From assembly GCA_040772365.1 (NCBI GenBank), contig JAXGYI010000003.1:7234-71233 (forward strand): a stretch of DNA of 64,000 nt. The letters are read 5' to 3'. Shown piece after piece: positions 24,615-51,834 of the stretch. The translations under genes and the position numbers were made by a program. Under the pieces are notes generated by a model that ran no database searches, was not told the DNA's origin, and was given only the letters and a program-made list of their open reading frames with translations. Source of the stretch: Candidatus Moraniibacteriota bacterium. GTDB lineage: Bacteria > Patescibacteriota > Minisyncoccia > Moranbacterales > GCA-2747515. Position 1 is the stretch's first letter. Each line of letters starts with the position of its first letter.

Positions 24615-26048
24615 TTGTTCTCCGTGCGCGACGCACAGGCGCAATTTCAAGAGGTACGATTGACATCCGGCTTTTTTGGGGAATATAGCCCATCGTTGTC
24701 TGGGGATAAAATTGTATGGCTTGACAATCGTCATTCAAGCGAAACAGATACAGAGGTTTATTTGTATGATTTTACAACAAAAAAAGAGAGACGCATTACA
24801 AATGTTGCTAGTAGAAAGGATGATGTCTCTATTTCTGGTAATCGGATTGTATGGACGGATTGGCGTAATGGAAATCAGGATATTTACATGTACGATTTAG
24901 CTACAAATGTTGAAAAACGTATCACTACCAATACCAAATCGCAAGTGTATCCAAAAATTGACGGAGATAAGATTGTATGGCAGGACTATCGAGATGGATC
25001 GATAGGGTCCGCTGTGTATATGTATGACCTTGCCACTAACACGGAGAAGCGACTTGTTACTTCCGAGGGGAAATATCAGGAACGCCCCGCAATATCTGGC
25101 AACTACGTTGTATGGTCTGATACAACCAGCAATCCCAATGGGCTACTACGGCTGTATAATATCTTCACTAGTGTCACAACGTATCCCTTGATTAGCGACA
25201 AGGGAGATCGTATGGACTTTGTTGCAATTTCTGGTAATAAGGTGGCGTACAGATATAACGAAAATGGAACAGGGCGGTACAATGTCTACGTCTATGACAT
25301 TGATACAAAAACAGAAGTAAAGGTAACAAAAAATACAACAACGGACCTACGAGATCTGGCAATTTCTGGTAATAAGGTGGCATGGACAGACAATCGCAAT
25401 GGCAATCTCGATATTTATCTTTATGATCTTGCAACTGCCAAAGAAACGCGCATCACAACCAATGCAGAAGAGCAGTCTGAGCCAACAATTTCTGGAAATC
25501 GGCTGGCGTGGAAGGACTTTCGACATGGAGGTGCAGACATCTTTCTTGTAGACTTTTCTCCTACAGCTGTGGAACCGCCAGTAGCTACTCCCAAGCCCGT
25601 TCACCGCTTCTACTCCGAAGAATTTCAAGCACACTTCTACACCATCTCTGAAGTAGAGAAAAACCATATCATTGCCACTTATCCACCCCGCACCTGGAAC
25701 TATGAAGGTGTTGCCTATAATGCGATTAGTGATAGTCTTCCGGGTATGGCGCCGATCCACCGTTTCTATTCTCTGGCTAGTAGAAAGCATTTCTATACCA
25801 TCTCTGAAGAGGAAAAGAACCGTCTCATTGGCGGAGCATATCCGGCAGCACAATTTACTTATGAGGGTGTTGCCTGGTACGCACACCAAAAGAACGCTGC
25901 TGCAACACGTCCGCTGCATCGCTTCTATTCCGAGAATAGTGCTGTGCACTTCTATACGGCATCGGAAAGTGAAAAAAACCACATCATTGCCACCTATCCA
26001 CCCCATATTTGGAACTATGAAGGAGTGGCGTGGCATGCGTTACAATAA
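24615..26048 (+). CDS. Secreted beta-propeller-repeat protein (TolB-like ISGxKIVW…DIYMYDL blades, about 8 copies) with a C-terminal module of three ~45-aa RFYS…HFYT…YEGVAWYA repeats
   Basis: Tandem blades of ~42 aa. In frame upstream of the TTG at 24615 lies a signal-peptide-like segment (…FAPIICFCASALFSVRDAQA) without a canonical ATG, so the true start is uncertain. C-terminal triple repeat at ~25595-26040. Confidence 0.7.
   Translation: MFSVRDAQAQFQEVRLTSGFFGEYSPSLSGDKIVWLDNRHSSETDTEVYLYDFTTKKERRITNVASRKDDVSISGNRIVWTDWRNGNQDIYMYDLATNVEKRITTNTKSQVYPKIDGDKIVWQDYRDGSIGSAVYMYDLATNTEKRLVTSEGKYQERPAISGNYVVWSDTTSNPNGLLRLYNIFTSVTTYPLISDKGDRMDFVAISGNKVAYRYNENGTGRYNVYVYDIDTKTEVKVTKNTTTDLRDLAISGNKVAWTDNRNGNLDIYLYDLATAKETRITTNAEEQSEPTISGNRLAWKDFRHGGADIFLVDFSPTAVEPPVATPKPVHRFYSEEFQAHFYTISEVEKNHIIATYPPRTWNYEGVAYNAISDSLPGMAPIHRFYSLASRKHFYTISEEEKNRLIGGAYPAAQFTYEGVAWYAHQKNAAATRPLHRFYSENSAVHFYTASESEKNHIIATYPPHIWNYEGVAWHALQ
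25605..25813 (+). repeat. Direct repeat copy A (~209 bp, apparently identical to 27092-27300)
   Basis: Nucleotide stretch cgcttctactccgaagaatttcaagcacacttctacacc…tctgaagagga recurs 1487 bp downstream. Confidence 0.8.
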
Positions 26049-26132
26049 GGAAAGAATAAACAGCTCATCATGAGCTGTTTATGCTCTAGAGAACAATACG
26101 ATTATAATCTTAATGTCTTTAATGACAAAAAA

Positions 26133-27535
26133 ATGAAGAAACTATGCCTCTTTATTCTCCCGACACTCTTTTTCATCGGACAGTCAACATGGGCGCAGGA
26201 AATGCGTATCACTCTTAATGATGGAGTGGATCATTATAATCCTGCAATTTCTGGTGATAAAATTGTTTGGAATGATATCGTAGCGGGAATGGAGATATTT
26301 ATCTCTACGACCTGACAACCGGAGAGGAAACGCGTATCACAACGGATGTGGAATCTCAGAGAGATCCCAGTATCTCTGGCGACAAAATTATTTGGAAAGA
26401 TCTTCGAGATGGCTTCTTCGGCAGTATTTATATGTATGATCTTACTACGAAAACAGAAACGCGTATTACGGGAGGTCTCGCAGTTCCATTTTATCCAAAA
26501 ATATCTGGCAATATCATTGTATGGGAGGATCGGAGAGAGGCGGGTAATCCGGACATTTATATGTACGATCTGACTACAGGCACAGAAAAAAAGGTTAGTA
26601 CGTATGCCAGTAAAAAGTCTAAACCAGCTATTTCTGGCAATAACATTGTGTGGGAGGATGAGCGCAATGGCAATTCGAACATCTATATGTATGACCTTGC
26701 TACAAATACAGAAAAAAAGATTAGCACACATACTAGTAGACAGATCGTTCCAGCTGTTTCTGGCAATATCATTGTGTGGGAGGATTATCGTGGTGGCAAC
26801 TGGGACCTCTACATGTATGACCTTTCTACAAACACAGAAAAAAAAGTTACTACGGATACATATGAAAAGAAAAATCCCTCCATCTCCGGTAATATCATCA
26901 CATGGGATGATAATCGTCATGGGAGTCGTGATATTTATATGTACGATCTAGTACGTTAAAAAGAGAAACGACTTACTCATGGGGCGGTATCTTGGAATTC
27001 TAGATTGTCCGGCAATCGAATTGTCTGGAGCGATAGTCGCACGGGAACATATCAGGTCTATCTTGTGTACACAGACAATCAACCTATCTATCGCTTCTAC
27101 TCCGAAGAATTTCAAGCACACTTCTACACCATCTCTGAAGTAGAGAAAAACCATATCATTGCCACTTATCCACCCCGCACCTGGAACTATGAAGGTGTTG
27201 CCTATAATGCGATTAGTGATAGTCTTCCGGGTATGGCGCCGATCCACCGTTTCTATTCTCTGGCTAGTAGAAAGCATTTCTATACCATCTCTGAAGAGGA
27301 GAAAAACGAACTCATCAACAATAAATACCCTGAAGCAAAATTCACCTATGAAGGTATTGCATGGTATGCACACAAAACACCGCAATCTTTCACCACACCT
27401 CTGTATAGATTCTACTCAAAGGCCCATGCCGTTCACTTCTATACCGTTAGTCAAGCAGAGAAGGAATACATTCAAAACACCTATCCGCAAGATATCTGGA
27501 ACTATGAAGGTATTGCGTGGTATGGGATGAGGTAG
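26133..27535 (+). pseudogene. Disrupted paralogue of the upstream beta-propeller/triple-repeat surface protein. It has a signal peptide, propeller blades and the C-terminal repeat module, but is broken by a 1-bp deletion (~26277) and an in-frame TAA (26957-26959).
   Basis: ORFs 26070-26315, 26348-26959 and 27005-27535 read as one protein across a -1 frameshift (gat-atc-gta-gcg-gg where the blade consensus predicts gat-Tat-cgt-agc-ggg). The stop falls where the blade consensus has Thr/Asn. Confidence 0.6.
27092..27300 (+). repeat. Direct repeat copy B (~209 bp identical to 25605-25813)
   Basis: See copy A. Encodes identical aa …RFYSEEFQAHFYTISEVEKNHIIATYPPRTWNYEGVAYNAISDSLPGMAPIHRFYSLASRKHFYTISEEE. 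Confidence 0.8.
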
Positions 27536-27664
27536 GCTCTCATAGCACATAGTCTAGAAATCCGCTATACTTCAAGTCAGCCCAGAGAAAGAAGGGTTGC
27601 TTGATGTCGTATTTATAGGTATGCTATAGGAGATAATATATTCAAAAATAGATACACAGAAAAA

Positions 27665-29743
27665 ATGAAAAACATATTTTATACGATCATATTTCTGAGC
27701 GCTATTTTTTTGTGTAGTGCAACAGCAGAGGACGTGTGTGCCGCTGATTTACATGTGCCGCAAGGTGGCTATAGTACCATTGGTGCAGCTATTAAAGCTG
27801 CGCAGGCAGGCGATCGTGTTATAGTGGCACCGGGTATCTATCGTGAAAATATTAGTATCCGTAAAAATATTGCAGTCATTTCTACGGATGGTGCAGCGCA
27901 CACGGTTATTGATGGTGGCGGACGTGATACGGTGGTACTTTTTGCTGACACTAGATTTGATGGTACGCATTCCGCACGTCTGTCGGGCTTTACAATTCGT
28001 GGCGGTCGTAGTGGTGAGGGACGTGGTGGCGGCGTTACAATGTACAATACGGATGGCATCGTAGAGCAGTGCAATATTATAAGCAATGTATCAACTATGG
28101 ATGCCGGTGCAATCTTGATGAATGATCGTGTGAACGGTGTAGTACGCAACAATACGATTACCGGTAATACTGCTGTGCGCTTTGGAGGTGCGATTATGGT
28201 AGTTTTGAATTCCCATCCACTCATCTATGGCAATACAATTACAGATAACACAGTGAGTGGCAATGCACTGTCGAGTGGTGGTGCACTTTTTGTGGACAGC
28301 CATTCATCGCCACAAGTTGTTAACAACACCATGCGCGGAAATACTGCAGCATTTGCTGGGGGTGCAATCTCGCTGCGCGTGGGCGTGAATGCAGTGATTG
28401 ATGGCAATACGATTGACCGTAATAGTGCCGCATATGGTGGTGGGATTCACATTGAAAGTGAGGGTGGCGGCGCATTACTCCGCGATAACACTATCACAAA
28501 TAATAGTGCGCACGAGAGGGATATTTCTGTAGGCTCTGGTTATGGTGGCGGCATCTCCATCTATGATAGGTCTGTGCCAACCATTGAAAAAAATATCATT
28601 GAGTCGAATTATGCAGATCGTGGTGGTGCAGGAATTGTTATTGCTGAGCAGGCAGTAGCGACGATTGCGCATAATACAATTCGAGGAAATAGCTTGCCAC
28701 AACAGGATGGACGCGTGGGTGGTGGCATCCATGCAACACATGCGACCATGCAGGCTTATAATAACACTATCAGTGATAATACAGCATTCATCGGTGGTGG
28801 CGTGGCACTTTTAGCAGGCGTGACAGCAAGGGTAGAGCAAAACACTATTGTACGCAACACTGTGCCAACATCCACGGCAGTGAATGCGGCAAGTGGTGGT
28901 GGTATTTTTATCCAAAGCTCTGCAGCATCTGCAGTAGTGATCAATAACATCATTACGCAAAATCAAGATCACCAAATTTTTGAAGAGCATAAAAAGGGTG
29001 TACTACGCAATAATATTGTCAATGATGACAGTAAGGGGATGTATTTCAACTGGGACACCTATACACTACACACAGTAACCGACATGGACAGTAGCAGCGC
29101 TGTTAATGCAGATGGTACGGTGAGTGGCACGGAGGGTTTTACAGATAGCGATTTTCGTATTGGCGCAACATCTGTTGGTATTGATAGGGGCATGAGCTCT
29201 GACATGACGTATGATTATGATTATCGCTTGCGCAGTGGTGTGCCAGATATTGGTGCTTTTGAGTATGCGCCATCATACAGTGTAGTACATCCAGTATATC
29301 GTTTTTGGAGTGATACTTTTGGTCATCACTTCTATACACTTAATCAACAAGAGCGTAATCACATTATGGAAACGTACGCTGCGAAGCAGTGGCGGTATGA
29401 GGGCGTGGCATTTCGCGCATTTCCTCTAGCACAGTGCCAGGGAGATCGTGTGTATCGTTTTTGGAGTGACGTTTTTCGCGGACACTTTTATACCATTTCT
29501 ACACAGGAGCGTGACTATATCATGGCATCATATGCGGACAATGTGTGGCGTTATGAGGGTGAGGCGTATTGCGCACAGCGTACTTCTATCACTGGGACAA
29601 CGGCACTCTTTCGCTTTTGGAGTGCGGCGTATAGCGGACACTTCTATACCATTAGTACCGCAGAGCGTGATCAGGTTATTGCAGCATATGATGACAGTAT
29701 TTGGAACTATGAGGGTGTTGGATATCATGTGTATACGCGGTAG
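27665..29743 (+). CDS. Secreted right-handed parallel beta-helix (NosD/pectin-lyase-fold-like) protein with a C-terminal triple RFWS…HFYT…YEG repeat module
   Basis: Signal peptide MKNIFYTIIFLSAIFLCSATA. About ten repeats of the NNTI(T/S)GN(T/S)A…GGAI type (PbH1-like). C-terminal three ~45-aa repeats at ~29285-29740. Confidence 0.7.
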   Translation: MKNIFYTIIFLSAIFLCSATAEDVCAADLHVPQGGYSTIGAAIKAAQAGDRVIVAPGIYRENISIRKNIAVISTDGAAHTVIDGGGRDTVVLFADTRFDGTHSARLSGFTIRGGRSGEGRGGGVTMYNTDGIVEQCNIISNVSTMDAGAILMNDRVNGVVRNNTITGNTAVRFGGAIMVVLNSHPLIYGNTITDNTVSGNALSSGGALFVDSHSSPQVVNNTMRGNTAAFAGGAISLRVGVNAVIDGNTIDRNSAAYGGGIHIESEGGGALLRDNTITNNSAHERDISVGSGYGGGISIYDRSVPTIEKNIIESNYADRGGAGIVIAEQAVATIAHNTIRGNSLPQQDGRVGGGIHATHATMQAYNNTISDNTAFIGGGVALLAGVTARVEQNTIVRNTVPTSTAVNAASGGGIFIQSSAASAVVINNIITQNQDHQIFEEHKKGVLRNNIVNDDSKGMYFNWDTYTLHTVTDMDSSSAVNADGTVSGTEGFTDSDFRIGATSVGIDRGMSSDMTYDYDYRLRSGVPDIGAFEYAPSYSVVHPVYRFWSDTFGHHFYTLNQQERNHIMETYAAKQWRYEGVAFRAFPLAQCQGDRVYRFWSDVFRGHFYTISTQERDYIMASYADNVWRYEGEAYCAQRTSITGTTALFRFWSAAYSGHFYTISTAERDQVIAAYDDSIWNYEGVGYHVYTR

Positions 29744-29794
29744 CTATGTACAAAAGTATCTATCTAGGATAGAGTGTATGCGTAAATTAGTATC

Positions 29795-30253
29795 ATGCAA
29801 TCTATGAGGTATTTATGGATTTTAGTTGGTGGTATTGGCGCCATGATAGTTATGGGATGTAGCAGCGATCCGGTGTCTGTAACACCACAAAAAAAAGACA
29901 TCTTCGCTCCGCAAAACGCAGGGGACACTACGTCGCTTGATGCATCGCAGGATGGCGCATCGTCAGTTGTAGATCATGCAGAGCCACAGTCAGCCGCCAC
30001 CGCACCAGGGAATGATTTGTCACAATCAGATCCGGTGGAGCATGCATCGCAAGCAGTATCATCAGAACATGTATCGCCGAAAGAGCAAGGCACTTCTGCA
30101 GAGGCTACTGCAACAGCAGGGCATGCATCCGAAAAAAAAGAGACGTCTTCCGTGAGTGATGCAGACATGGAAAGGATTGCTGCAGAGGCAAAAAAATGTG
30201 TTGACGGTGGCGGCGTATACAACACATTTGCACAGAAATGCTTTCAAAACTAA
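29795..30253 (+). CDS. Small lipoprotein, low-complexity Ser/Ala/Glu-rich
   Basis: Signal peptide with lipobox …AMIVMGC|SSDP. No recognisable domain. Confidence 0.45.
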   Translation: MQSMRYLWILVGGIGAMIVMGCSSDPVSVTPQKKDIFAPQNAGDTTSLDASQDGASSVVDHAEPQSAATAPGNDLSQSDPVEHASQAVSSEHVSPKEQGTSAEATATAGHASEKKETSSVSDADMERIAAEAKKCVDGGGVYNTFAQKCFQN

Positions 30254-30263
30254 ATAGATAGTG

Positions 30264-32132
30264 CTATGGGATGTGCCATCCGATTCCCTCATAGCGCCAG
30301 ATGTGATCGGGATATGTCGCAATAACAGTATCGCGTTCAGGGGCACTCGCTGTATAGAAGTGTCCTTGTTTTGTGTCAGACCAAAAGCGGTAGACCGGCG
30401 TGGATTGCGCGAGAGGGTAGGGGTAAGCATAGTAGGCAATACCCTCATAGTTCCATATGTAGGGATCATACTGCGCAATAACGGCGTCGCGCTCTTCTTG
30501 TGAAGCTGTATAGAAATGATGTTGCTGGGCAGTACTCCAAAAGCGGTAGATCGGCGTAGTGTTTGCTTGTTGCTGCGAGAAAGCAAGAAAGGCAATTCCC
30601 TCATAGCGCCAGATGTGGTCTGGGTAGGTTGCAATGACAGCATCACGCTCAGTAATGCTTGCTGTGTAGAAATGCCCTTGTGTCGCAGCAGACCAAAAGC
30701 GGTAAATGGGTGTTGTCGCGCATGACTCTGTTGGAATGGTACCGGACTGTGCAGCGCGCAAGGCAGTGTAGAGATTTAGTCGTCTGTTGCATGCTACAGT
30801 ATTTTCTAGAGAAGCCGGATGATCACTACTTGCAAGGATGATGGCGCGTACTGCTGTGGGAGAGAGAAAGGGCTTGTGTCCGAAAATCATTGCGGCAGCA
30901 CCTGAAACAAATGCGGCGGCATAGGAGGTACCGTCGCCGGTGTAGTAGGTGTTATTTTCTATAGTGCCTACAATACTTTCACCTGGTGCAGCGATGTCTA
31001 CAGATGTACCATAATTAGAAAATGATGCCAAAGTGTCATTTTTTGTAGATGCTCCGACGCAGATGATGTTAGAGAGATCGTAATTGCATGGGTACTGCGG
31101 AGTGACATCAACATTGTCGCCAACTCTGTCATTGCCACCATTGCCTGCAGCAGTAACGACTACGCCATCAAATGTAGAAAGGGCATCATATTCTGATCTT
31201 GCATAGGATGGTCCGCCAAAACTGGCATTAAGCACCTTAATGCCGTGTGTTTTGGCAAATGCAATTGCTTGCAATTCTGATGCTAGGGTGAGGTCAAATC
31301 GTAACGCCATAATTTTGCCAGTATTATAGCGGCTCATACCGGCAAGTCCGGTAGCATTGTTCGTAATGGCGGCAAAAATACTAGCTACCATTGATCCGTG
31401 ACCATATAAGTCAGGGTGTGTGGATGTATCATAGGGATCATGGTCATCATCGGCGAAATCCCAGCCATGCTTTGGGCATGTTGCATCCATTGCGGGATTA
31501 CAGTGAGGGGCTGTCCAGAGATTTCCGTGCAACTCAGGATTGTCATGGAGGATCCCGCTATCAATAAATGCTACAGTTGTAGGTGTTGCAGAAGGGTGTT
31601 CAATATCCCACGCCTCTGTGCTATCAATATCACTATTCGTGGACTGTTGGTGGTACCACTGGTAACCCGCAATGAAATACGGATCATTTGGACTAAATGC
31701 TGGCGTCTTGATATAGTTGGGCTCGGCATAGGCTACATCGGCACTTGCAGAGAGTCGCGCAATGAGCGTCTCGGTGTTTTCCTCTTCCGCTGCAATAATG
31801 ACAATATTGAGATCAGTAAAAGAATGTCGGATTTGCAGGGCATCAGTTTTTGCGGCAGCCTTAAGAGAGGAGAGAATCTTATCACTTGCATGCGCAGTGA
31901 TGTCATGTGGAGATGCAGATATGCCAATTTCTTTGCGTGTAGCCGCGTGAAACTTCTTGATGGCAGTATCATGCATGCGTACAATAACCTCACCATCTCG
32001 ATACGGTGCTGGATGGGTAGCGTGATTGAATGGGCGCTGAGGGAGTTCTTCAGCAGCTACTGTGTGGGTATGTGGAATACATAATGCAAAAACAATAGCG
32101 GCGGTAGAAGCGCAGGAAAGTATTTGTGTCAT
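30264..32132 (-). CDS. Secreted subtilisin-like serine protease (peptidase S8) with a C-terminal triple RFWS…HFYT…YEGIA repeat module
   Basis: Catalytic triad contexts AFIDSGI (Asp), HGSMVAS (His), GTSYAAAFVSGAAAM (Ser). Signal peptide MTQILSCASTAAIVFALCIP. Start chosen at the internal Met (the ORF track extends to 32297, overlapping the next gene). Three C-terminal repeats encoded ~30264-30700. Confidence 0.8.
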   Translation of the reverse strand: MTQILSCASTAAIVFALCIPHTHTVAAEELPQRPFNHATHPAPYRDGEVIVRMHDTAIKKFHAATRKEIGISASPHDITAHASDKILSSLKAAAKTDALQIRHSFTDLNIVIIAAEEENTETLIARLSASADVAYAEPNYIKTPAFSPNDPYFIAGYQWYHQQSTNSDIDSTEAWDIEHPSATPTTVAFIDSGILHDNPELHGNLWTAPHCNPAMDATCPKHGWDFADDDHDPYDTSTHPDLYGHGSMVASIFAAITNNATGLAGMSRYNTGKIMALRFDLTLASELQAIAFAKTHGIKVLNASFGGPSYARSEYDALSTFDGVVVTAAGNGGNDRVGDNVDVTPQYPCNYDLSNIICVGASTKNDTLASFSNYGTSVDIAAPGESIVGTIENNTYYTGDGTSYAAAFVSGAAAMIFGHKPFLSPTAVRAIILASSDHPASLENTVACNRRLNLYTALRAAQSGTIPTESCATTPIYRFWSAATQGHFYTASITERDAVIATYPDHIWRYEGIAFLAFSQQQANTTPIYRFWSTAQQHHFYTASQEERDAVIAQYDPYIWNYEGIAYYAYPYPLAQSTPVYRFWSDTKQGHFYTASAPERDTVIATYPDHIWRYEGIGWHIP

Positions 32133-32229
32133 TGCGCGCTGAAAATATGTTTTGCGGGAAAGAGTAGTGTAGATATACACTTTGTTGAAGTGGTTCATGT
32201 GCCAAGGCATAGCAGGAGGTGATGTTGTG

Positions 32230-32784
32230 TTACAGACTTTCAATAAATTCTTGTTGTAGACGTGTAATGCACGTTTTTTTGATTCCACCATCATCAATTT
32301 CGTCGCAGATGGTTATATCTTTTTGTGCGATAGCACGGTCTTTGAGACAGTAGTCCTTTGGTAGTCCATTGTGTGCATCGCAATGTGTGATGGAATCACT
32401 AGAAGAAAGACCGCAGGCATTTCTGCAATAACGAAGCTCCTTTGCGTCATGTTTGTACGGCTCACATTCACGTGCACAATCTGGTGGGGTGATGTTGATA
32501 TAGGCTGTGGATGGTGATGTAGTAGCGGGAGGGACGGTATCTTGTGGCTCTTGTTCTACGATAGATTGCGGATCTAGATCGTTGTGCGTAATAGGCACAT
32601 CAGGGGTTTCTACTGGCACGTCATGTTGTGATGGTGGTGCTGTGTCTGTAGGTGGTGTGACGAAAACGTCACGGTCACGGGCGCTGAAAACAGTGATTAC
32701 AAAATAGAGCACGATAATGACAGCTATGGTGAGTGCCGTGTAGAGGATGTGTATAGGGCGTAGATTTTTTCGTAGCATAGTCAT
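32230..32784 (-). CDS. Membrane-anchored protein with a Pro/Thr-rich linker and a Cys-rich C-terminal domain (hypothetical)
   Basis: N-terminal TM anchor MTMLRKNLRPIHILYTALTIAVIIVLYFVITVF, then a PT-rich stretch, then about 10 Cys over 90 aa. Start trimmed to avoid overlap with the upstream gene. Confidence 0.4.
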   Translation of the reverse strand: MTMLRKNLRPIHILYTALTIAVIIVLYFVITVFSARDRDVFVTPPTDTAPPSQHDVPVETPDVPITHNDLDPQSIVEQEPQDTVPPATTSPSTAYINITPPDCARECEPYKHDAKELRYCRNACGLSSSDSITHCDAHNGLPKDYCLKDRAIAQKDITICDEIDDGGIKKTCITRLQQEFIESL

Positions 32785-32801
32785 GCAGGAATAAAGATTG
32801 A

Positions 32802-34712
32802 TTAGTATGCAGCATCGAGTGCGATATCCTTGTAGTAGTAACGCATAATGCGTGCGTAACTCCATCCATGATCGCGAGCAAGAGCAAGAGATCCGTGTGC
32901 AATAAGGCCTACCATGTGATTACCCTCAGTCTCTAGTGTAGATGTGGATTTTGTGGCGTGTTTGCCATAGGGATCTTTGACGGATTGGCACCATGGATAT
33001 AGTCTTGATCCCCAGCGCTCCTCAAAGCTGCGCGTACGACCATCACTCCAAGAGCTATATGGCGTGAGTGCTGTTTCGCCACGTGATGTCATAATGACGC
33101 CACGGGTTGCCTCTGCTGCTTTGCGGATAGTGGAATATTTCTGTTCCCAGTCATAGCCACGGTAGATTTGCGAACCGCTATCAGAGCGAATCTTGAATCC
33201 CAACGGAGCGTACTTTGTAGCATAATCTACGTACCACTTTCCGTAAGTGCGGAACATCGTTGTCATGACCTTGCTATGTTCAAATGGTCCGGTGCCGGTC
33301 ATCTCGCCCATACCCCATACGTAGTGCTCCATCGGCAAGGTATTGATTACCCAAATCTGCTTAACGCTATTTGTCGTACCGCCAATGATGTCACGTCCAC
33401 TGTAGTAGCGCACAGTGATGGATCCACGGTAATGATCGTAAGAGGACTGTGGGCGATGCACGTCAAAGATCATCGTGGCATTATCACCATCAGCAGCGTC
33501 AAAAGTGACTTTTTCATCAATAATGCGATCGCTGATGGACGAGTAAACTTTGAGACTTCCACCACCATCGTAAGTGACTTTTGTGCGCGTGCTACCACCG
33601 ATTTGCGCTATGATCGCGCCACTCTTGTCGCGGATGTTATAAGGCTTGTTAGCGTTAATTTCAAAAGGATTTTGCTGCATGGCAGAGCGGTCGTAGTGCC
33701 ACAGACCGACAGAAATGAGTGGACCAGTATTGCCGATGAGGGCGTAGTGTTTTTCTATGTCGTTGATGGTGTAGAAGTGATCGCGGGTGTTATAGAGACG
33801 ATGGACAGGTAGTGTGCCTACAGTTGGCGTGGGGTAGGCGTAGAATGCAACACCTTCATAGATATAGCCAGATGCTGTAGAACTCAATTGATCTTTTTCA
33901 TGTGTGCTGATGGTGTAAAAGTGATTACCAGTGATGGTGTGATTGAAACGATAAACAGGTTGCGCATTATTTTTTGGATCACGAAACGCATAAAATGCTG
34001 CGCCCTCATAGCGGTATGGTGTGCGGTTTTGCAAGAGAGTGCGCTTTTCATTTTCGTCAGCAGTATAGAAGTGATTCCCTGTAGTAGTATTGATGAAGCG
34101 ATAGATGGTATGATTGGCCATTTTAGTGGCGTTGTCCAGTGTCGCAGCCTCACCATCGTTAGCAGTATAGAAATGATCGCCATTAGCGTGGTTAATGAAG
34201 CGGTATACGGTGGTAGTGCCAGCCGCCTTATGTGGATAGGCATAGAAAGCAATGCCTTCTGATGCGTAGATAGTAGAGAGGTGTTGGGTAATGTAATCTT
34301 TTTCTTCTTGAGAAATGGTGTAAAAGTGGTCACCATTCGTATGATTGACGAAGCGGTAGATAGGCTGTGCATCGTGTAGATCGGAGATATAGCTATAGAA
34401 TGCAATACCTTCATAGGTGTAGATGTCTGCGTGCTGTGCAATAAGAGTATTTTTTTCGTTTTCGTCTGCAGTGTAGAAATGATCGCCGTTTGTAGTGTTG
34501 ACAAAGCGGTGGACGGGCACGGTGCCGTCTGCTTGTGCGGCAAATGCGTAAAAAGCTACTCCTTCCGCCTGATATTGCGTGCCGACGGTGTGATCAGGGT
34601 AGGCGTAGAATGCGATGCCCTCATCCGTATAGCTCGCATGTGTACTATGTTGTGGCAAGAGAATAGCACTGCCAAGGAGCGTCCATGCGATGATTAGTGC
34701 GATGTGTTTCAT
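32802..34712 (-). CDS. Secreted protein with an N-terminal array of about 6-8 RF[VI]N…GDHFYT…YEGIAFYAY repeats and a C-terminal SpoIID/LytB (amidase-enhancer) domain
   Basis: Signal peptide MKHIALIIAWTLLGSAILLP. Repeats over aa ~25-330. The C-terminal domain carries SpoIID-like …MEHYVWGMGEM… and …GNHMVGLIAHGSLALA… motifs. Confidence 0.7.
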   Translation of the reverse strand: MKHIALIIAWTLLGSAILLPQHSTHASYTDEGIAFYAYPDHTVGTQYQAEGVAFYAFAAQADGTVPVHRFVNTTNGDHFYTADENEKNTLIAQHADIYTYEGIAFYSYISDLHDAQPIYRFVNHTNGDHFYTISQEEKDYITQHLSTIYASEGIAFYAYPHKAAGTTTVYRFINHANGDHFYTANDGEAATLDNATKMANHTIYRFINTTTGNHFYTADENEKRTLLQNRTPYRYEGAAFYAFRDPKNNAQPVYRFNHTITGNHFYTISTHEKDQLSSTASGYIYEGVAFYAYPTPTVGTLPVHRLYNTRDHFYTINDIEKHYALIGNTGPLISVGLWHYDRSAMQQNPFEINANKPYNIRDKSGAIIAQIGGSTRTKVTYDGGGSLKVYSSISDRIIDEKVTFDAADGDNATMIFDVHRPQSSYDHYRGSITVRYYSGRDIIGGTTNSVKQIWVINTLPMEHYVWGMGEMTGTGPFEHSKVMTTMFRTYGKWYVDYATKYAPLGFKIRSDSGSQIYRGYDWEQKYSTIRKAAEATRGVIMTSRGETALTPYSSWSDGRTRSFEERWGSRLYPWCQSVKDPYGKHATKSTSTLETEGNHMVGLIAHGSLALARDHGWSYARIMRYYYKDIALDAAY

Positions 34713-40613: not shown

Positions 40614-40925
40614 AAAAAATGTTTTCTCTTTGTTACTGTAGCGGTTTTTTCCGTCAGCGTCAATCATCGGATACGTAGCACTGCAGCGCAACGTGTGCAA
40701 GCAAAACCCCATATTAATGAAAAACACCAACCTTTGCACGGGTAGGAGTATTGTTTGAAATTTTTGTGGTTGAGGCTAGAAAGCGTTGATCTTGCAGATC
40801 GGACCATATCGTTTTCGTCAAACCAATGGACCGGACTACAGGCCAGCTCCAGCGAGAAGTTGCAATAGCAAAGATGTGGTTGTGGCGTGCCGTTGACGAG
40901 CTGTCGCCGCCGCCTTGACAACTTT

Positions 40926-40954
40926 CGTGTCTTTGTATAGTATAGGGGATACAT
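40926..40954 (+). promoter_or_regulatory. Candidate sigma70-type promoter for the infA-rpmJ-rpsM… operon (TTGACA, then TAGTAT 17 bp or TATAGT 15 bp downstream)
   Basis: ccgccTTGACAactttcgtgtctttgTATAGTATagg, about 140 nt upstream of the infA ATG. Divergent from prfA. Confidence 0.45.
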
Positions 40955-41095: not shown

Positions 41096-41311
41096 ATGGC
41101 AAAAAAAGATACGATCAAGATGGAGGGTGAAGTGTTGGAAACACTGCCAAGCACCACGTTTCGTGTGAAACTGGACAACGGGCATGAGGTTCTTGCACAT
41201 ATTTCCGGGCGCATGCGTGTGCACTACATCAAAATCCTTCCGGGTGATCGTGTTGTTGTGGAAATTAGTCCATATGATCTTACAAAGGGACGCATTACGC
41301 ATCGTCTGTAA
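41096..41311 (+). CDS. infA: Translation initiation factor IF-1
   Basis: [41 protein letters not shown]… S1-like OB fold of IF-1. 71 aa. Confidence 0.9.
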
Positions 41312-41372
41312 GACAGGACAGCATCATCTTTTACTACTGTACTGGCATTCCTACAAGTAACATACTACGACC

Positions 41373-41486
41373 ATGAAAGTTCGTGCATCAGCAAAGAAAA
41401 TTTGTAAACAGTGTAAAATCGTTCGTCGTCGCGGGCGTGTATATGTTATTTGCGTGACGCCAAAACACAAACAGCGGCAAGGTTAA
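41373..41486 (+). CDS. rpmJ: 50S ribosomal protein L36
   Basis: 37-aa [40 protein letters not shown] (zinc-ribbon C-x2-C…C-x4-H). Below the ORF-track length cut-off. Confidence 0.85.
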
Positions 41487-41514
41487 GTATTTTTTGACTA
41501 TATTCATTACGCGT

Positions 41515-41904
41515 ATGATTCGCATTGCAGGTATCAACATTCCAGATGACAAGTGCATTGATGTGGCACTAACGTACATCTACGGTATCGGTCCGTCCAC
41601 AAGTAGGAAGATTTTGGCATCTCTCAAGATTGACGCATCGAAGCGCACCAAGGACTTAACAGAAGCACAGGCAAATCGTTTGCGTGATACGATTGAAAAA
41701 GAGTATCGCGTGGAAGGTGAATTGCGCCATGATCGTAAGATGGCTGTGCGTCGCCTTAAGGAGATTGGATCCTATCGTGGTACACGTCACCATAAAGGCT
41801 TGCCGGTTCGTGGGCAACGCACAAAAACCAATAACCGTACTGTGCGTGGCAATAAGCGCGTGACGATGGGAAGTGGTCGTGCAGCAGCAGCATCCAAGAC
41901 ATAG
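41515..41904 (+). CDS. rpsM: 30S ribosomal protein S13
   Basis: MIRIAGINIPDDKCIDVALTYIYGIG… Start placed at the internal Met matching the canonical S13 N-terminus. Confidence 0.9.
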   Translation: MIRIAGINIPDDKCIDVALTYIYGIGPSTSRKILASLKIDASKRTKDLTEAQANRLRDTIEKEYRVEGELRHDRKMAVRRLKEIGSYRGTRHHKGLPVRGQRTKTNNRTVRGNKRVTMGSGRAAAASKT

Positions 41905-41970
41905 GATGGGTTCCAGTTACTATGGAGGGAGTGTATGTGTGAAGTTTATTGTAAATGGTAATTTTGACGC

Positions 41971-42453
41971 ATGAGCGAACAAACACCAACAACCAAAGAG
42001 CATGAGCAGAATGTCGCCACAAAAGATGCGACAGCTGTATCAGAAGCACAGCAACAGAAAGAAGTGTCTGCTGCACCGGCAAAGCGCAAGAAGAGTGGTG
42101 CACGCCAGGTTCGTAAAGGACAGGCGCATGTGCAGTCTACATACAATAACACGATTGTGACAATTACGGATCTCAATGGTGCAGTGCTTGGCTGGTCAAG
42201 TTCTGGATCGCTGGGTTTTAAGGGTGCAAAAAAATCTACGCCATATGCTGCGTCACAGATTATCAATGCTGTATGGGAAAAAGTACAAAAACACAACATT
42301 AAGGAATTGCAGATTTATGTGAGTGGTGTGGGGAGCGGTCGTGATGCGGCAATGCGTGCTCTCGCAGCAAAAGGGATTGAGATTAGTCTCATCAAAGATG
42401 TTACACCGATTGCACATAATGGTTGCCGCAAGCGTAAACCACGTCGCGTATAA
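41971..42453 (+). CDS. rpsK: 30S ribosomal protein S11 (with an N-terminal extension)
   Basis: …AHVQSTYNNTIVTITDLNGAVLGWSSSGSLGFKGAKKSTPYAAS… S11 core. Confidence 0.9.
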   Translation: MSEQTPTTKEHEQNVATKDATAVSEAQQQKEVSAAPAKRKKSGARQVRKGQAHVQSTYNNTIVTITDLNGAVLGWSSSGSLGFKGAKKSTPYAASQIINAVWEKVQKHNIKELQIYVSGVGSGRDAAMRALAAKGIEISLIKDVTPIAHNGCRKRKPRRV

Positions 42454-42494
42454 TACTGTAGTATTTTTGTAAACAAGAAACCATTTTTATCACT

Positions 42495-43115
42495 ATGGCA
42501 CGACACAGAGGGTCAAAATCTAAAATTTGTCGCCGTTTCGGCGAGAATCTCTACGGATCAGACAAGTACGATCGTATTTTAGCGCGCAAAAATTATGCGC
42601 CAGGTATGCACGGGAAAAGTTTTGGACGTAGTAAAAGTGAATACGGCAAACAGCTACTCATGAAACAGAAGGCGAAGTACGTCTACGGTATTTTGGAGAA
42701 ACAGTTTCGCAAGCATTACGAGGATGTGAAAAATCGCCCCGGTGTAACAGGTGACCTGCTTTTGGCACGTTTGGAGCAGCGTTTGGATAACGTGGTGTAT
42801 CGTTTAGGATTTGCCAATACGCGACCGCAGGCGCGACAAGTAGTGAGCCATGGCATGATCTACGTTAATGGGAAGAAGATGACAATTCCTTCCTATGAGG
42901 TGAAAGTTGGTGATGAGATTACAATCAATCCGCATAAGAAGGATAACGGCTATTTCAAGAACCAAGAGCAGTATATTACTCACAAAAAAACTGTACCAAG
43001 TTGGTTGAGCTTGGATCAAAAATCATGGAAAGGGTCTATTGTTGCGCTACCAAAGCGCGAGGATTGTGACGCGCATATCAATGCACAAATCATTGTAGAA
43101 TTCTATTCCAAATAA
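42495..43115 (+). CDS. rpsD: 30S ribosomal protein S4
   Basis: MARHRGSKSKICRRFGENLYG… with an S4 RNA-binding domain. Confidence 0.9.
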   Translation: MARHRGSKSKICRRFGENLYGSDKYDRILARKNYAPGMHGKSFGRSKSEYGKQLLMKQKAKYVYGILEKQFRKHYEDVKNRPGVTGDLLLARLEQRLDNVVYRLGFANTRPQARQVVSHGMIYVNGKKMTIPSYEVKVGDEITINPHKKDNGYFKNQEQYITHKKTVPSWLSLDQKSWKGSIVALPKREDCDAHINAQIIVEFYSK

Positions 43116-43152
43116 TTTTTTATCCCTTTCATAATTTTTTAAACACAACGTT

Positions 43153-43887
43153 ATGGCAATCATTCCTATTCCACAGCCATCACAATATACAGACGGTAAG
43201 GATCATACAGGCACTGTGGAGATTCCTGGATGTTATCCTGGATATGGCACAACACTTGGCAATGCAATTCGTCGCGTACTCCTCTCATCAATTGAGGGCG
43301 CGGCAATTACCTCTGTCAAGATCAAGGGTGTGGCGCATGAATTTTCCTCTATTGAAGGTGTCTTGGAGGATGCCGTGCAAATCATTTTAAACTTAAAGCA
43401 TGTACGTTTGCGCATGGACGGCAATGAGAAGATGACAGCAACGATTTCTGCAAAAGGTGAGGGTGTGATTACTGCCGGAGACATCAAGACAACAACTGGC
43501 TTAGAGATTGTTGATCCCGCGCAGCATATTGCAACTATTACAGATAAGAAGGCATCTTTGGAGATGGAGATGACGGTGGAAAAGGGGATTGGTTATGTCT
43601 CTAGCGACCATCATCAGGATGTGGAAAAAGAAGTGGGGTCTATCATGATTGATGCAGTGTATACGCCCGTGAAACGCGTGAATTATAATGTGGAGAATAT
43701 GCGTGTGGGGAAGCGTACGGACTATGAAAAAGTCACATTGGAAATCGTTACGGATGGGAGTATTGCACCGCAGGAGGCATTTGATCAAGCCGTGGATATT
43801 TTGGTAGAGCAGTTTAGCGCACTATCGGCAACTGGTGGAGTGGCTACGGATAACAATGCGGATGATGATGGTGAGGATAAAGAGTAG
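43153..43887 (+). CDS. rpoA: DNA-directed RNA polymerase alpha subunit, N-terminal domain only (244 aa; no alpha-CTD in the ORF)
   Basis: …GTTLGNAIRRVLLSSIEGAAITSVKIKGVAHEFSSIEGV… alpha-NTD. The ORF ends in an acidic tail (…NADDDGEDKE*) where the interdomain linker would start. rplQ begins 21 nt later. Confidence 0.85.
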   Translation: MAIIPIPQPSQYTDGKDHTGTVEIPGCYPGYGTTLGNAIRRVLLSSIEGAAITSVKIKGVAHEFSSIEGVLEDAVQIILNLKHVRLRMDGNEKMTATISAKGEGVITAGDIKTTTGLEIVDPAQHIATITDKKASLEMEMTVEKGIGYVSSDHHQDVEKEVGSIMIDAVYTPVKRVNYNVENMRVGKRTDYEKVTLEIVTDGSIAPQEAFDQAVDILVEQFSALSATGGVATDNNADDDGEDKE

Positions 43888-43907
43888 TGATATTTTAGTA
43901 TAAAGTC

Positions 43908-44381
43908 ATGAAGAACAGAAAAGTAGGACGACAATTTGGTCGCGTGCGTGCACAGCGCAAAGCATTGTTATATAGTCTTGTGAGTAGTGTAATTATTCAC
44001 GGGCGCATTCAGACAACAGAAGCGAAAGCAAAAGAAACAAAAAGTGCCGTGGATAAGATCATTACAATAGCCAAGCGCGCAGCAGATCGTCCCATGGAAA
44101 TGGTGCGTAAACTGGAAGGATTAATCTCACCGCAGGCAATTGCTGTATTGCGTGCCGACATGCAACGTTTTGCTACGCGTACCAGCGGATATAGTCGCGT
44201 GATCAAATGCGTGCCACGGACAAGTGACGGTGCCCGCATGGCAATCATTGAACTCGTGGATCGCGAACAAAAATCGACACATGCAACTTCTTCTGCAAAA
44301 AAGACTACACAGAAGGAGAAAGAGGATGTGAAGGAGGAAGCAACGGCGCGCGACACTACTGCACCAGTATCAGATAATTAA
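43908..44381 (+). CDS. rplQ: 50S ribosomal protein L17 (with a C-terminal low-complexity extension)
   Basis: MKNRKVGRQFGRVRAQRKALLYSLVSSVIIHGRIQTTEAKAKE…. Confidence 0.85.
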   Translation: MKNRKVGRQFGRVRAQRKALLYSLVSSVIIHGRIQTTEAKAKETKSAVDKIITIAKRAADRPMEMVRKLEGLISPQAIAVLRADMQRFATRTSGYSRVIKCVPRTSDGARMAIIELVDREQKSTHATSSAKKTTQKEKEDVKEEATARDTTAPVSDN

Positions 44382-44395
44382 TTGACGTGACGATC

Positions 44396-44785
44396 ATGAA
44401 ACGACAAACCCATCTTTTTGATGCACAGAACAAAGTACTCGGACGTCTCGCAACAGAAATTGCGACAGTGCTTTCTGGGAAGGATCGTGTTGACTATACA
44501 CCGCACATTGACGATGGCGGTACAGTTGTGGTAATCAATGCTGCACGCGTACATCTTACTGGTACAAAGGAGCTTGATAAGAAATACCATCGCTATACAG
44601 GGTATTCTGGCGGTATTCGCACAATCACAGTGAAGGAGCAGCGTGAAAAGGATGCACGTGAGATCATTCGTGTTGCCGTGAAGGGCATGTTACCAAAGAA
44701 TAAACTTGGTCGTGCCATGCAAAAACGTCTTTTTATTTACAATGATGCAGCGTATACGGAGCATATTGATGTAACGCACGCATAA
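44396..44785 (+). CDS. rplM: 50S ribosomal protein L13
   Basis: MKRQTHLFDAQNKVLGRLATEIATVLSGK… Start at the internal ATG; the ORF track begins at 44387. Confidence 0.85.
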   Translation: MKRQTHLFDAQNKVLGRLATEIATVLSGKDRVDYTPHIDDGGTVVVINAARVHLTGTKELDKKYHRYTGYSGGIRTITVKEQREKDAREIIRVAVKGMLPKNKLGRAMQKRLFIYNDAAYTEHIDVTHA

Positions 44786-44810
44786 TTTTGCAACTAATTT
44801 TTTTGAGTGT

Positions 44811-45269
44811 ATGATGGCGACAACGAAGGAGACAACAAAGAAAAACGATTCTACGCTTTTTTCTGGCGTGTATCACTATGGTGTGGGGCGGCGCAAAACG
44901 GCAGTGGCGCAGGTGCGCGTGTACTGTGATGTTAAAGGTGCTGTGGATAGCGCGGGACTTGTGGTCAATGGTAAGCCATTTGATACGTATTTTACAACAG
45001 CAACGCAGAAAGAAGCCTTTCTCGCATCGTTGAAGGCTGTGGGGCTACATGAAAAATGTGCTGTTTCCGTGGTGGTCAAAGGCGGTGGATTGTCTGGTCA
45101 GGCTGATGCAATTAAAATGGGCATGGCACGTGCATTGGTGCGTTATGATGAGGCGCTACGTCCCTCGCTTAAAGCGGAAGGACTACTCACGCGCGATGCG
45201 CGTCAAGTGGAACGCAAGAAGCCGGGATTGCGCAAGGCGCGTCGCGCACCGCAGTGGAGCAAGCGCTAG
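44811..45269 (+). CDS. rpsI: 30S ribosomal protein S9
   Basis: …GVGRRKTAVAQVRV…GGGLSGQADAIKMGMARAL…RKKPGLRKARRAPQWSKR. Confidence 0.85.
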   Translation: MMATTKETTKKNDSTLFSGVYHYGVGRRKTAVAQVRVYCDVKGAVDSAGLVVNGKPFDTYFTTATQKEAFLASLKAVGLHEKCAVSVVVKGGGLSGQADAIKMGMARALVRYDEALRPSLKAEGLLTRDARQVERKKPGLRKARRAPQWSKR

Positions 45270-45312: not shown

Positions 45313-45345
45313 AACCACCCCGACACATCATGGGGTGGTTTTTGT
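45313..45345 (+). terminator. Rho-independent terminator after rpsI (convergent with cysS)
   Basis: aaccacccc / ggggtggtt 9-bp stem with a 10-nt loop, followed by tttgtgtg. Confidence 0.55.
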
Positions 45346-50898: not shown

Positions 50899-51834
50899 AT
50901 GACACAGCAAGAAAAGCAAAAGAATAGTGAAAAAGATATTATTGTACGGCGTGCATTCCGCTTGTCACAGAAAGCACTCTTTTACAATCCGCAGGCGCGC
51001 ACGTATCTCATTTTGCGCGTTGGGCCAACAAAGAGTGGTTCACCTGCACATACGCGGTGGATGGAGAAATATGGTCCGATGGATTTGCCGGGTGGGCACA
51101 TGGATGAAGGCGAAACAGATTTGTATGCGGCGTTTGTACGCGAAGTACAAGAGGAGACAGGTGTTGATGTTTCTAGATACACGGCGGTACCATGTCACAC
51201 AGTTCTCATGATCAACGAAGGTGCACAGTATCCAAGTGGTGTGAATACGATTGCACTAGTGCAGTATGATGGTGAGATTGTCTTGAGTGAGGAGCATATG
51301 GATATGCAATGGCTGACTGCACAGGAAGTGGAAGATCACGGCGAGATCAAGGAGTGGATTAAGGAAAGTGTACGTAAGGCCCAAGAGCTGATTGCACTAC
51401 GAGAGGCAGATGATCGGTGGAGGCGGTGCGTAGCAGATTTTGATAATTATAAAAAACGTCAGGCGCAAACGCAGAAGGACCTCACCGCCTATGCTGCCGA
51501 AGGTGTCATTATGGATCTGTTGCCAGTGGTGGACAATTTTCACGCAGCGACCGATCATATTCCTGCTGACCAGGCAGATAATCCGTGGGTGACAGGCATC
51601 ATGTATATTCGTCAGCAAATGGAAAAGGTTTTTGAAGAGAAGGGCGTGACGCGGATGGAGGTAAAGAGTGGTGATGTGTTTGATCCGTCACGCATGGAGG
51701 CAGTGAAAGAAAATGAGGATGACACGATTGATGGTGATGCAGTGGTAAAGAAAGTGGTTCAGCCAGGCTATATGATGGGAGAGAGGGTTTTACGTGTGGC
51801 GCGTGTAGCAGTAGGACGGAGAGTAGAAAAGTAA
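50899..51834 (+). CDS. grpE: Fusion protein: N-terminal NUDIX hydrolase domain plus C-terminal GrpE nucleotide-exchange-factor domain
   Basis: Nudix box GGHMDEGETDLYAAFVREVQEETGV (G-x5-E-x7-REVxEExG) at aa ~65-90. GrpE signatures …CVADFDNYKKRQAQ… and …GDVFDPSRMEAV…GYMMGERVLRVARVAV at aa ~175-311. Confidence 0.7.
   Translation: MTQQEKQKNSEKDIIVRRAFRLSQKALFYNPQARTYLILRVGPTKSGSPAHTRWMEKYGPMDLPGGHMDEGETDLYAAFVREVQEETGVDVSRYTAVPCHTVLMINEGAQYPSGVNTIALVQYDGEIVLSEEHMDMQWLTAQEVEDHGEIKEWIKESVRKAQELIALREADDRWRRCVADFDNYKKRQAQTQKDLTAYAAEGVIMDLLPVVDNFHAATDHIPADQADNPWVTGIMYIRQQMEKVFEEKGVTRMEVKSGDVFDPSRMEAVKENEDDTIDGDAVVKKVVQPGYMMGERVLRVARVAVGRRVEK

Follow-up and report, generated by a model that had tools for sequence, protein, structure and literature searches.

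The stretch of DNA analyzed here (referred to as the window) is 64 kb in length, and its gene content is typical of Patescibacteria. It contains genes for ParB, MurD and ComEC, a large glycosyltransferase cluster with a low-GC island, five DUF5648 proteins, Ugd and PrfA, then the alpha operon, which is followed by CysS, CorA, HrcA, a NUDIX-GrpE fusion, Hsp20, DnaK, NusG-L11-L1, tRNA-Gln, MurG and MurC. The window encodes neither a sigma factor nor another RNA polymerase subunit (rpoB, rpoC, rpoD, rpoZ), nor any product that is an obvious activator. When it was scanned for Rfam families and tRNAs, the tRNA-Gln was returned only, and no rRNA operon.

Three regions of the window outside the alpha operon showed features of their own. 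The low-GC island (~12000-18700) has a GC content of 0.30-0.38 compared with ~0.46 elsewhere. Its genes encode an ABC ATPase of the Wzt type, a methyltransferase, a 993-aa protein that contains three GT2 domains, and a product of 516 aa to which Pfam assigned no family. The island may be a cluster for glycan export that was acquired horizontally. The five DUF5648 ORFs are neighbours (24615-34712, both strands) and include fusions with PD40, beta-helix/NosD, subtilase S8 and SpoIID, one of the ORFs having three DUF5648 copies. They look like a locally expanded family of secreted or surface proteins. Within the hrcA-grpE-hsp20-dnaK cluster a 311-aa ORF (50899-51834, forward strand) combines a NUDIX hydrolase (residues 26-154) with GrpE (residues 154-306), an unusual architecture for the nucleotide-exchange factor of DnaK.

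The alpha operon was delimited by ORFs and Pfam matches. It spans positions 41096-45269 on the forward strand in the order infA-rpmJ-rpsM-rpsK-rpsD-rpoA-rplQ-rplM-rpsI. The rpsD gene (S4; 42495-43115, forward strand; PF00163 and PF01479) is located directly upstream of rpoA, and rplQ (L17, 157 aa; 43908-44381, forward strand; PF01196 at residues 21-117, E 3e-22) downstream, so that rpoA occupies its canonical position between the two. L17 carries a low-complexity C-terminal extension of ~40 aa past the end of the Pfam match at residue 117, and S11 (41971-42453) an N-terminal extension of ~49 aa. The best sigma70-like promoter candidate of the operon, TTGACA-17-TAGTAT (40915-40943, forward strand), is predicted from its match to the consensus only, and promoter-like sites were no more numerous in its region than in shuffles. 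A terminator-like hairpin of 10 bp (6 GC) followed by a T-run is found after rpsI (45313-45340, forward strand).

The rpoA ORF itself (43153-43887, forward strand) starts with ATG, encodes 244 aa and ends with the TAG stop codon at 43885-43887. This is directly followed by TGA, and tandem in-frame stops at 43885-43890 can thus be read from the sequence. Residues 1-228 (43153-43836) represent the alpha N-terminal domain (NTD), the platform for dimerisation and beta/beta' assembly. Residues 229-244 (43837-43884) form a disordered acidic tail, which is probably the remnant of the interdomain linker. An earlier note on this DNA had described an rpoA ORF of 244 aa with precisely this stop, and had argued that rplQ starts 21 nt past the stop and leaves no room for the C-terminal domain (CTD). 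Both statements were confirmed directly in the sequence: the ATG of rplQ lies at 43908, and the spacer (43888-43907) has 20 nt, too short for a CTD.

In the Pfam search the 244-aa product matched only PF01193 (residues 29-221, E 1.9e-23) and PF01000 (residues 55-171, E 2e-32), and PF03118, the family of the CTD, was absent even at E<=1. The product exceeded the equivalog cut-offs of two NCBIfam models, NF003519 with 280.7 bits (cut-off 277) and TIGR02027 with 264.5 bits (cut-off 227.8). The NCBIfam rpoA models have 298-344 positions, and the match ended at model position ~211-240. Six other PRK05182 sub-models stayed below cut-off because one third of each model was unmatched. The alpha chains in the PDB aligned to residues 12-228 only (E 1e-58 to 1e-45), and of the E. 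coli subunit only residues 30-231 of 329 were covered in this search. Taken over models and solved chains, the alignments end at residues 222-228.

The AF2 model (53 homologues) had a mean pLDDT of 85. It is folded over residues 11-226 and predicts residues 229-244 to be disordered, with pLDDT below 50. A Foldseek comparison against the PDB gave as top matches only RNA polymerase alpha NTD chains, from seven species, with TM scores of 0.78-0.94 and an rmsd of 1.6-3.0 Å. Pfam, NCBIfam, the PDB alignments, AF2 and Foldseek therefore agree with the earlier proposal that this RpoA consists of the alpha-NTD alone. The motif DILVEQFSALS, which had been placed at the end of the alpha-NTD, corresponds to residues 215-225 and lies where the final NTD helix of the model (206-226) ends, and the acidic tail follows directly after the domain, as had been described. 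A CTD-like segment hidden inside the 244-aa product, which would have changed this picture, was found neither by Pfam nor in the model alignments.

The NTD, the fold and the rpsD-rpoA-rplQ slot are shared with canonical RpoA (E. coli 329 aa, B. subtilis 314 aa, T. thermophilus 315 aa; TIGR02027/PRK05182). Identity to PDB alpha chains was about 38-46% in the Foldseek alignments (TM ~0.8-0.94). Canonical RpoA, however, is 300-340 aa long and has the helix-hairpin-helix CTD of PF03118 (residues 249-329 in E. coli) together with a linker, whereas the protein of the window has 244 aa, lacks the CTD and has lost most of the linker.

Weak matches of RpoA to NF001988 (E 3.6e-5) and PF13656 were observed as well. 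Archaeal Rpo3 (subunit D) and eukaryotic Rpb3/AC40 are alpha-like assembly platforms which naturally have no alpha-CTD, a likeness to the protein described here. Since the latter matches bacterial models at E 1e-84 but archaeal ones at 1e-5 and is thus clearly of bacterial type, the resemblance represents convergent architecture and not descent.

The truncated form is not restricted to the window. The 41 closest protein clusters (64-99% identity), drawn from NCBI, JGI, ENA and Logan assemblies, were all 227-263 aa in length and lacked PF03118. Some of the genes of these CTD-less relatives are located on contigs of 1.18 Mb (JGI contig Ga0645781_00011) and 1.29 Mb, the 1.29-Mb contig, which encodes XLQ19925.1, being annotated as Candidatus Moraniibacteriota. 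In five independent assemblies (L087-L091) the gene order was identical to that of the alpha operon in the window, infA-(rpmJ)-rpsM-rpsK-rpsD-rpoA-rplQ-rplM-rpsI, and the rpoA-rplQ spacers of the relatives measured 18-80 nt. In total, the fetched DNA loci comprised 46 CTD-less ones, with rplQ directly after the stop, and 115 CTD-bearing ones. The comparison with closely related genomes that had been suggested earlier thus reveals the CTD-less state to be clade-wide and recurrent. Several of the fetched loci (L009, L011, L012, L017, L019, L022 and others) are Patescibacteria-type alpha operons titled 'uncultured Bdellovibrionales bacterium' or 'Candidatus Bathyarchaeia archaeon', which are probably taxonomic mislabels of MAGs.

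Broken rpoA genes do occur in metagenome assemblies (L002, L003, L005, L026, L066, L172), and the truncation in the window could in principle be a sequencing or assembly artefact with a premature stop, or a recent pseudogenisation. A stop created by a sequencing error had also been considered in the earlier note. It is ruled out because no CTD coding sequence follows the stop in any frame, rplQ beginning 21 nt on, and because the same architecture recurs in 46 independent loci, which come from assemblies of JGI, NCBI, ENA and Logan. In comparisons of the window with relatives of 76-91% protein identity, dN/dS of the NTD was 0.02-0.08 and synonymous sites were saturated; the gene is therefore functional and the truncated state old. 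Two equivalog cut-offs were moreover passed despite a third of the model missing. We give an artefact or pseudogene practically no chance; the comparative data already refute it.

Across 53 truncated RpoA homologues 60 columns were invariant. R40/R41 are among them, R41 being the equivalent of E. coli R45 according to the alignment offset. The strong purifying selection and the invariant R45 equivalent suggest that the protein assembles the core as alpha2 with beta and beta'.

Full-length orthologues of ~300-326 aa with the helix-hairpin-helix motif LSxRTxNxL...GMGxKGxKEI were found among relatives at <=67% NTD identity, including genomes labelled Moranbacteria. A genome scan with one narrow peptide pattern, G[ML]G[EK]KGx[KE]E[IV], gave 128 hits, 80 of which were kept (GTDB species). 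Within these 80 species-representative genomes, whose CTD is of the Patescibacteria type, this domain was always located after the NTD in the rpsD-rpoA-rplQ slot, and in the reading frame of the NTD except for one contig-end cut and two assembly breaks. The genomes are labelled Moran-, Nomura-, Vogel-, Nealson-, Wolfe-, Yonath-, Portnoy-, Sungi- and Roizmanbacteria, among others. As all 80 CTDs are fused to the NTD in the operon slot, they belong to orthologues in other genomes and are neither paralogues nor detached CTDs, and the presence of CTD-bearing orthologues in the same slot shows the CTD to be ancestral.

In neighbour-joining (NJ) trees, built from a single domain with 216-225 columns, the clade of the window's RpoA (40 cluster representatives, all CTD-less and with acidic tails) was supported by 200 of 200 bootstraps. 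The unrooted Fitch count varied between 1 and 5 state changes, and an outgroup-rooted Dollo count with regain disallowed was used instead. It yielded three losses, corresponding to CTD-less clades of 67, 50 and 1 tips; across the bootstraps the number ranged from 2 to 9 and was never 1. Judging from these trees, the ancestral alpha-CTD was lost at least twice.

Based on these results we regard it as very probable that the ORF is the functional, orthologous rpoA of Moranbacteria-like Patescibacteria, from which the ~80-aa CTD was deleted in evolution, leaving the NTD and an acidic linker stub.

The missing domain might still be supplied in trans, either as a polypeptide of its own (split alpha) or by a further, full-length paralogue of rpoA as in Francisella, whose alpha1/alpha2 are among the PDB matches (6wmp). 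Space for such a gene exists in the rest of the genome, since the contigs of relatives suggest a size of roughly 1.2 Mb, compared with the 64 kb of the window. When all six frames of the entire window were searched with a lineage-specific CTD HMM and the E. coli CTD, however, only noise was returned (best E=1.9, 1422 frame segments), and no separate intact PF03118 ORF is present in the 64 kb. Among the 80 CTD matches in species-representative genomes, all of them NTD-fused in the operon slot, there was likewise neither a detached CTD nor a second copy.

Short proteins with PF03118 only are present in the databases: a Moranbacteria CTD profile searched against 5.8 billion proteins found 40 of them. 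Those that are related to the lineage and could be evaluated all follow immediately after an NTD in the slot of rpoA; they were rejected as stand-alone CTDs. The apparent split is due to a contig end in L001, L006 and L173, to a homopolymer frameshift in L002 and L003 (a long-read assembly, in which truA is split too), to a 1-nt deletion in L005 and to a scaffold N-gap in L172. Apparent splits from the genome scan were explained in the same way, by an in-frame TAA at an invariant Tyr in L026, an N-gap in L066 and a contig end in L035.

In L026 and L005, two unrelated contigs, rpoA is broken at the same position of the NTD, the invariant Tyr codon of GKRTDYEK, with a TAA at ~2755-2757 in L026 and a nearby 1-nt deletion at ~2975 in L005. 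A programmed event was considered here and dismissed, the two defects being unrelated. Errors of assembly, or dead alleles, are the most likely cause.

A genuinely free-standing alpha-CTD-like ORF was found once. It encodes the 75-aa protein P0157 (PF03118; L004, 5001-5228) and is flanked by genes for a RelA_SpoT small alarmone synthetase and a PPIase, with MoxR/BatA genes and a GldG-like ABC gene nearby. With an identity of only 36% and a non-Patescibacterial neighbourhood it was rejected as a detached CTD of this lineage. The reservation of the earlier note that the CTD could be encoded elsewhere therefore found no support in the window or in the 80 species-representative loci, and we consider a CTD acting in trans to be quite improbable.

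The alternative that the role of the CTD was taken over non-homologously is compatible with CTD loss as the main explanation. Here the acidic tail would have acquired a new function, such as mimicking DNA or docking a partner, or the contacts to upstream DNA would be made instead by a different DNA-binding protein or by an extension of another RNA polymerase subunit. The tail in the window (ATGGVATDNNADDDGEDKE) contains 37% D+E and is disordered and 16-19 aa long. Throughout the clade of the window the tails (7-27 aa) remain acidic, with 36% D+E and 4% K+R, despite their variable sequence. The interdomain linkers of CTD-bearing relatives are, however, equally acidic (33% D+E), so that the composition of the tail is explained by descent. 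Owing to this resemblance the tail is most plausibly what is left of the linker that once joined the two domains.

The evolution of the tail points in the same direction. Its sequence is unconserved and evolves nearly neutrally (dN/dS 0.14-1.0, at few sites). Over all truncated RpoA forms its length ranges from 2 to 57 aa, some clades having nearly no tail, and the alpha operon contains no inserted extra gene.

Sister CTD-less clades, on the other hand, carry tails of 20-57 aa with lysine-rich patches ('PKKxxKKK'). K+R averaged over all other short tails amounts to 24% versus 4% in the clade of the window. Lysine-rich tails were found in the proteins P0044, P0054-P0060, P0063, P0066-P0068, P0072, P0073, P0075, P0083, P0088 and P0092, and furthermore in P0096-P0099, P0102, P0104-P0106, P0109, P0110, P0115 and P0117-P0120. 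These tails could make non-specific contacts to DNA in place of the CTD, which would favour a replacement. Altogether we regard a non-homologous replacement as unlikely, and prefer the loss of the CTD with a linker stub left behind.

A close counterpart of the truncated protein exists as a laboratory construct. The boundaries of E. coli alpha(1-235) (PDB 1bdf, 235 aa) are almost the same, residues 1-228 in the window corresponding to residues 1-235 of E. coli. Core enzyme with alpha(1-235) is active in basal transcription and inactive in UP- and class I-dependent transcription, and such constructs are not known to support viability of E. coli. In contrast to the construct, the truncation in the window is a native and selected state. 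The transcription properties of the truncated-alpha core, basal activity but no UP- or class I-dependent transcription, are summarised in PMC8321222.

Natural alpha subunits without a CTD are already known from Hodgkinia, Tremblaya and Euglena plastids. Reports have so far come almost exclusively from insect endosymbionts with extreme genome reduction and from some plastids. The genomes of Hodgkinia and Tremblaya are among the most reduced bacterial genomes known. NTD-only alpha has been documented for both (PMC8321222). As in the protein described here, the NTD is kept, the CTD is lost and a loss of UP-element recognition is predicted. In Hodgkinia the flap-tip of beta is lost and sigma erosion has been reported (PMC8321222). 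While other parts of the RNA polymerase are eroded in these endosymbionts, the NTD in the window is well conserved and relatives are found on contigs of 1.18-1.29 Mb.

The 1.18-Mb and 1.29-Mb contigs within the clade speak against an extremely reduced endosymbiont or organelle genome. The genes of the window for peptidoglycan synthesis, ComEC, large glycosyltransferase clusters and chaperones are likewise at odds with extreme reduction. Unlike in Hodgkinia and Tremblaya, the loss is recurrent within a large clade from the environment, and the CTD persists in its sister lineages. For the Euglena chloroplast, rpoA without a CTD is described by Sheveleva et al. 2002, as cited in PMC8321222. The subunit is of bacterial type and CTD-less like the one in the window, but it works in an organellar polymerase, highly divergent and dependent on nuclear factors.

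Concerning function, the NTD of E. coli alpha is sufficient for alpha2-beta-beta' assembly and basal transcription, whereas the alpha-CTD is the part that contacts UP elements and on which class I activators act. The same division of tasks is given in PMC8321222. By analogy, the NTD described here would dimerise and nucleate the assembly of beta and beta'; the core would assemble and sigma-dependent basal transcription would be normal. The contacts of the CTD, namely minor-groove binding of UP elements, recruitment by class I activators and interactions with sigma region 4 or NusA, would not be made by this polymerase. The biochemistry of E. coli and B. subtilis leads us to expect an enzyme that assembles and is active, though without UP and class I functions. 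The suggestion of the earlier note that promoter architecture and activator repertoire are simplified, with neither UP-element use nor class I activation, is on this basis reasonable and plausible.

With regard to this consequence, predicted intergenic sigma70-like promoters with >=9/12 matches were compared, 162 from the 115 CTD-bearing and 90 from the 46 CTD-less loci. The A+T content at -59..-38 minus the intergenic background of the locus was -0.029 in the CTD-bearing and -0.009 in the CTD-less group (p=0.17), and there was no enrichment in the CTD-bearing group, the positive control, either, so that the comparison speaks neither for nor against the consequence. Over all fetched loci the mean intergenic A+T was 0.57 in CTD-less compared with 0.69 in CTD-bearing loci; the sampled CTD-less lineages are markedly more G+C-rich, which may be due to phylogeny. 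The DNA upstream of the -35 element of the operon promoter candidate in the window is also G+C-rich, an anecdote that would fit UP-independence.

Why the loss is tolerated is a matter of speculation. These small-genome, probably slow-growing episymbionts might cope because their activators are few and their rRNA promoters need no boost from UP elements.

The alpha-CTD is regarded as a universal element in how bacteria recognise promoters and respond to activators, and it is indispensable to model organisms. Full-text literature searches found no study of a CTD-less alpha in Patescibacteria, and RNA polymerase is unmentioned in a 2024 review of the group. The only mention found is one sentence on Parcubacteria in PMC8321222, which cites Nelson & Stegen 2015; the text and supplements of the latter list rpoA only as a core gene and hold no observation of a CTD-less form. 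The loss described here is reductive and has clear precedents, and no new mechanism is demonstrated. New is the better-populated, recurrent loss in organisms with ~1.2-Mb genomes rather than in 140-kb endosymbionts.

On balance, we lean towards the view that a large, environmental and non-endosymbiotic clade of Patescibacteria, related to Moranbacteria and with ~1.2-Mb genomes, uses an RNA polymerase without any alpha-CTD function, with at least two losses of the domain in neighbouring lineages and, in some of these, short lysine-rich tails in its place. Annotation pipelines assign the label 'RNA polymerase subunit alpha' to such proteins and leave the missing domain unflagged. Promoter and expression tools from model bacteria may behave differently in Patescibacteria, and the CTD loss constrains models of transcription regulation in this group. 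A well-sampled CTD-less environmental clade beside sister lineages that keep the CTD represents a natural experiment, and comparing both could reveal the promoter features, regulators and growth strategies that make the CTD dispensable. If the proposed view is true, these organisms would possess natural minimal bacterial polymerases with neither UP-element recognition nor class I activation, and the alpha-CTD, though essential in model bacteria, would be dispensable at a genome size of ~1.2 Mb given the right lifestyle.
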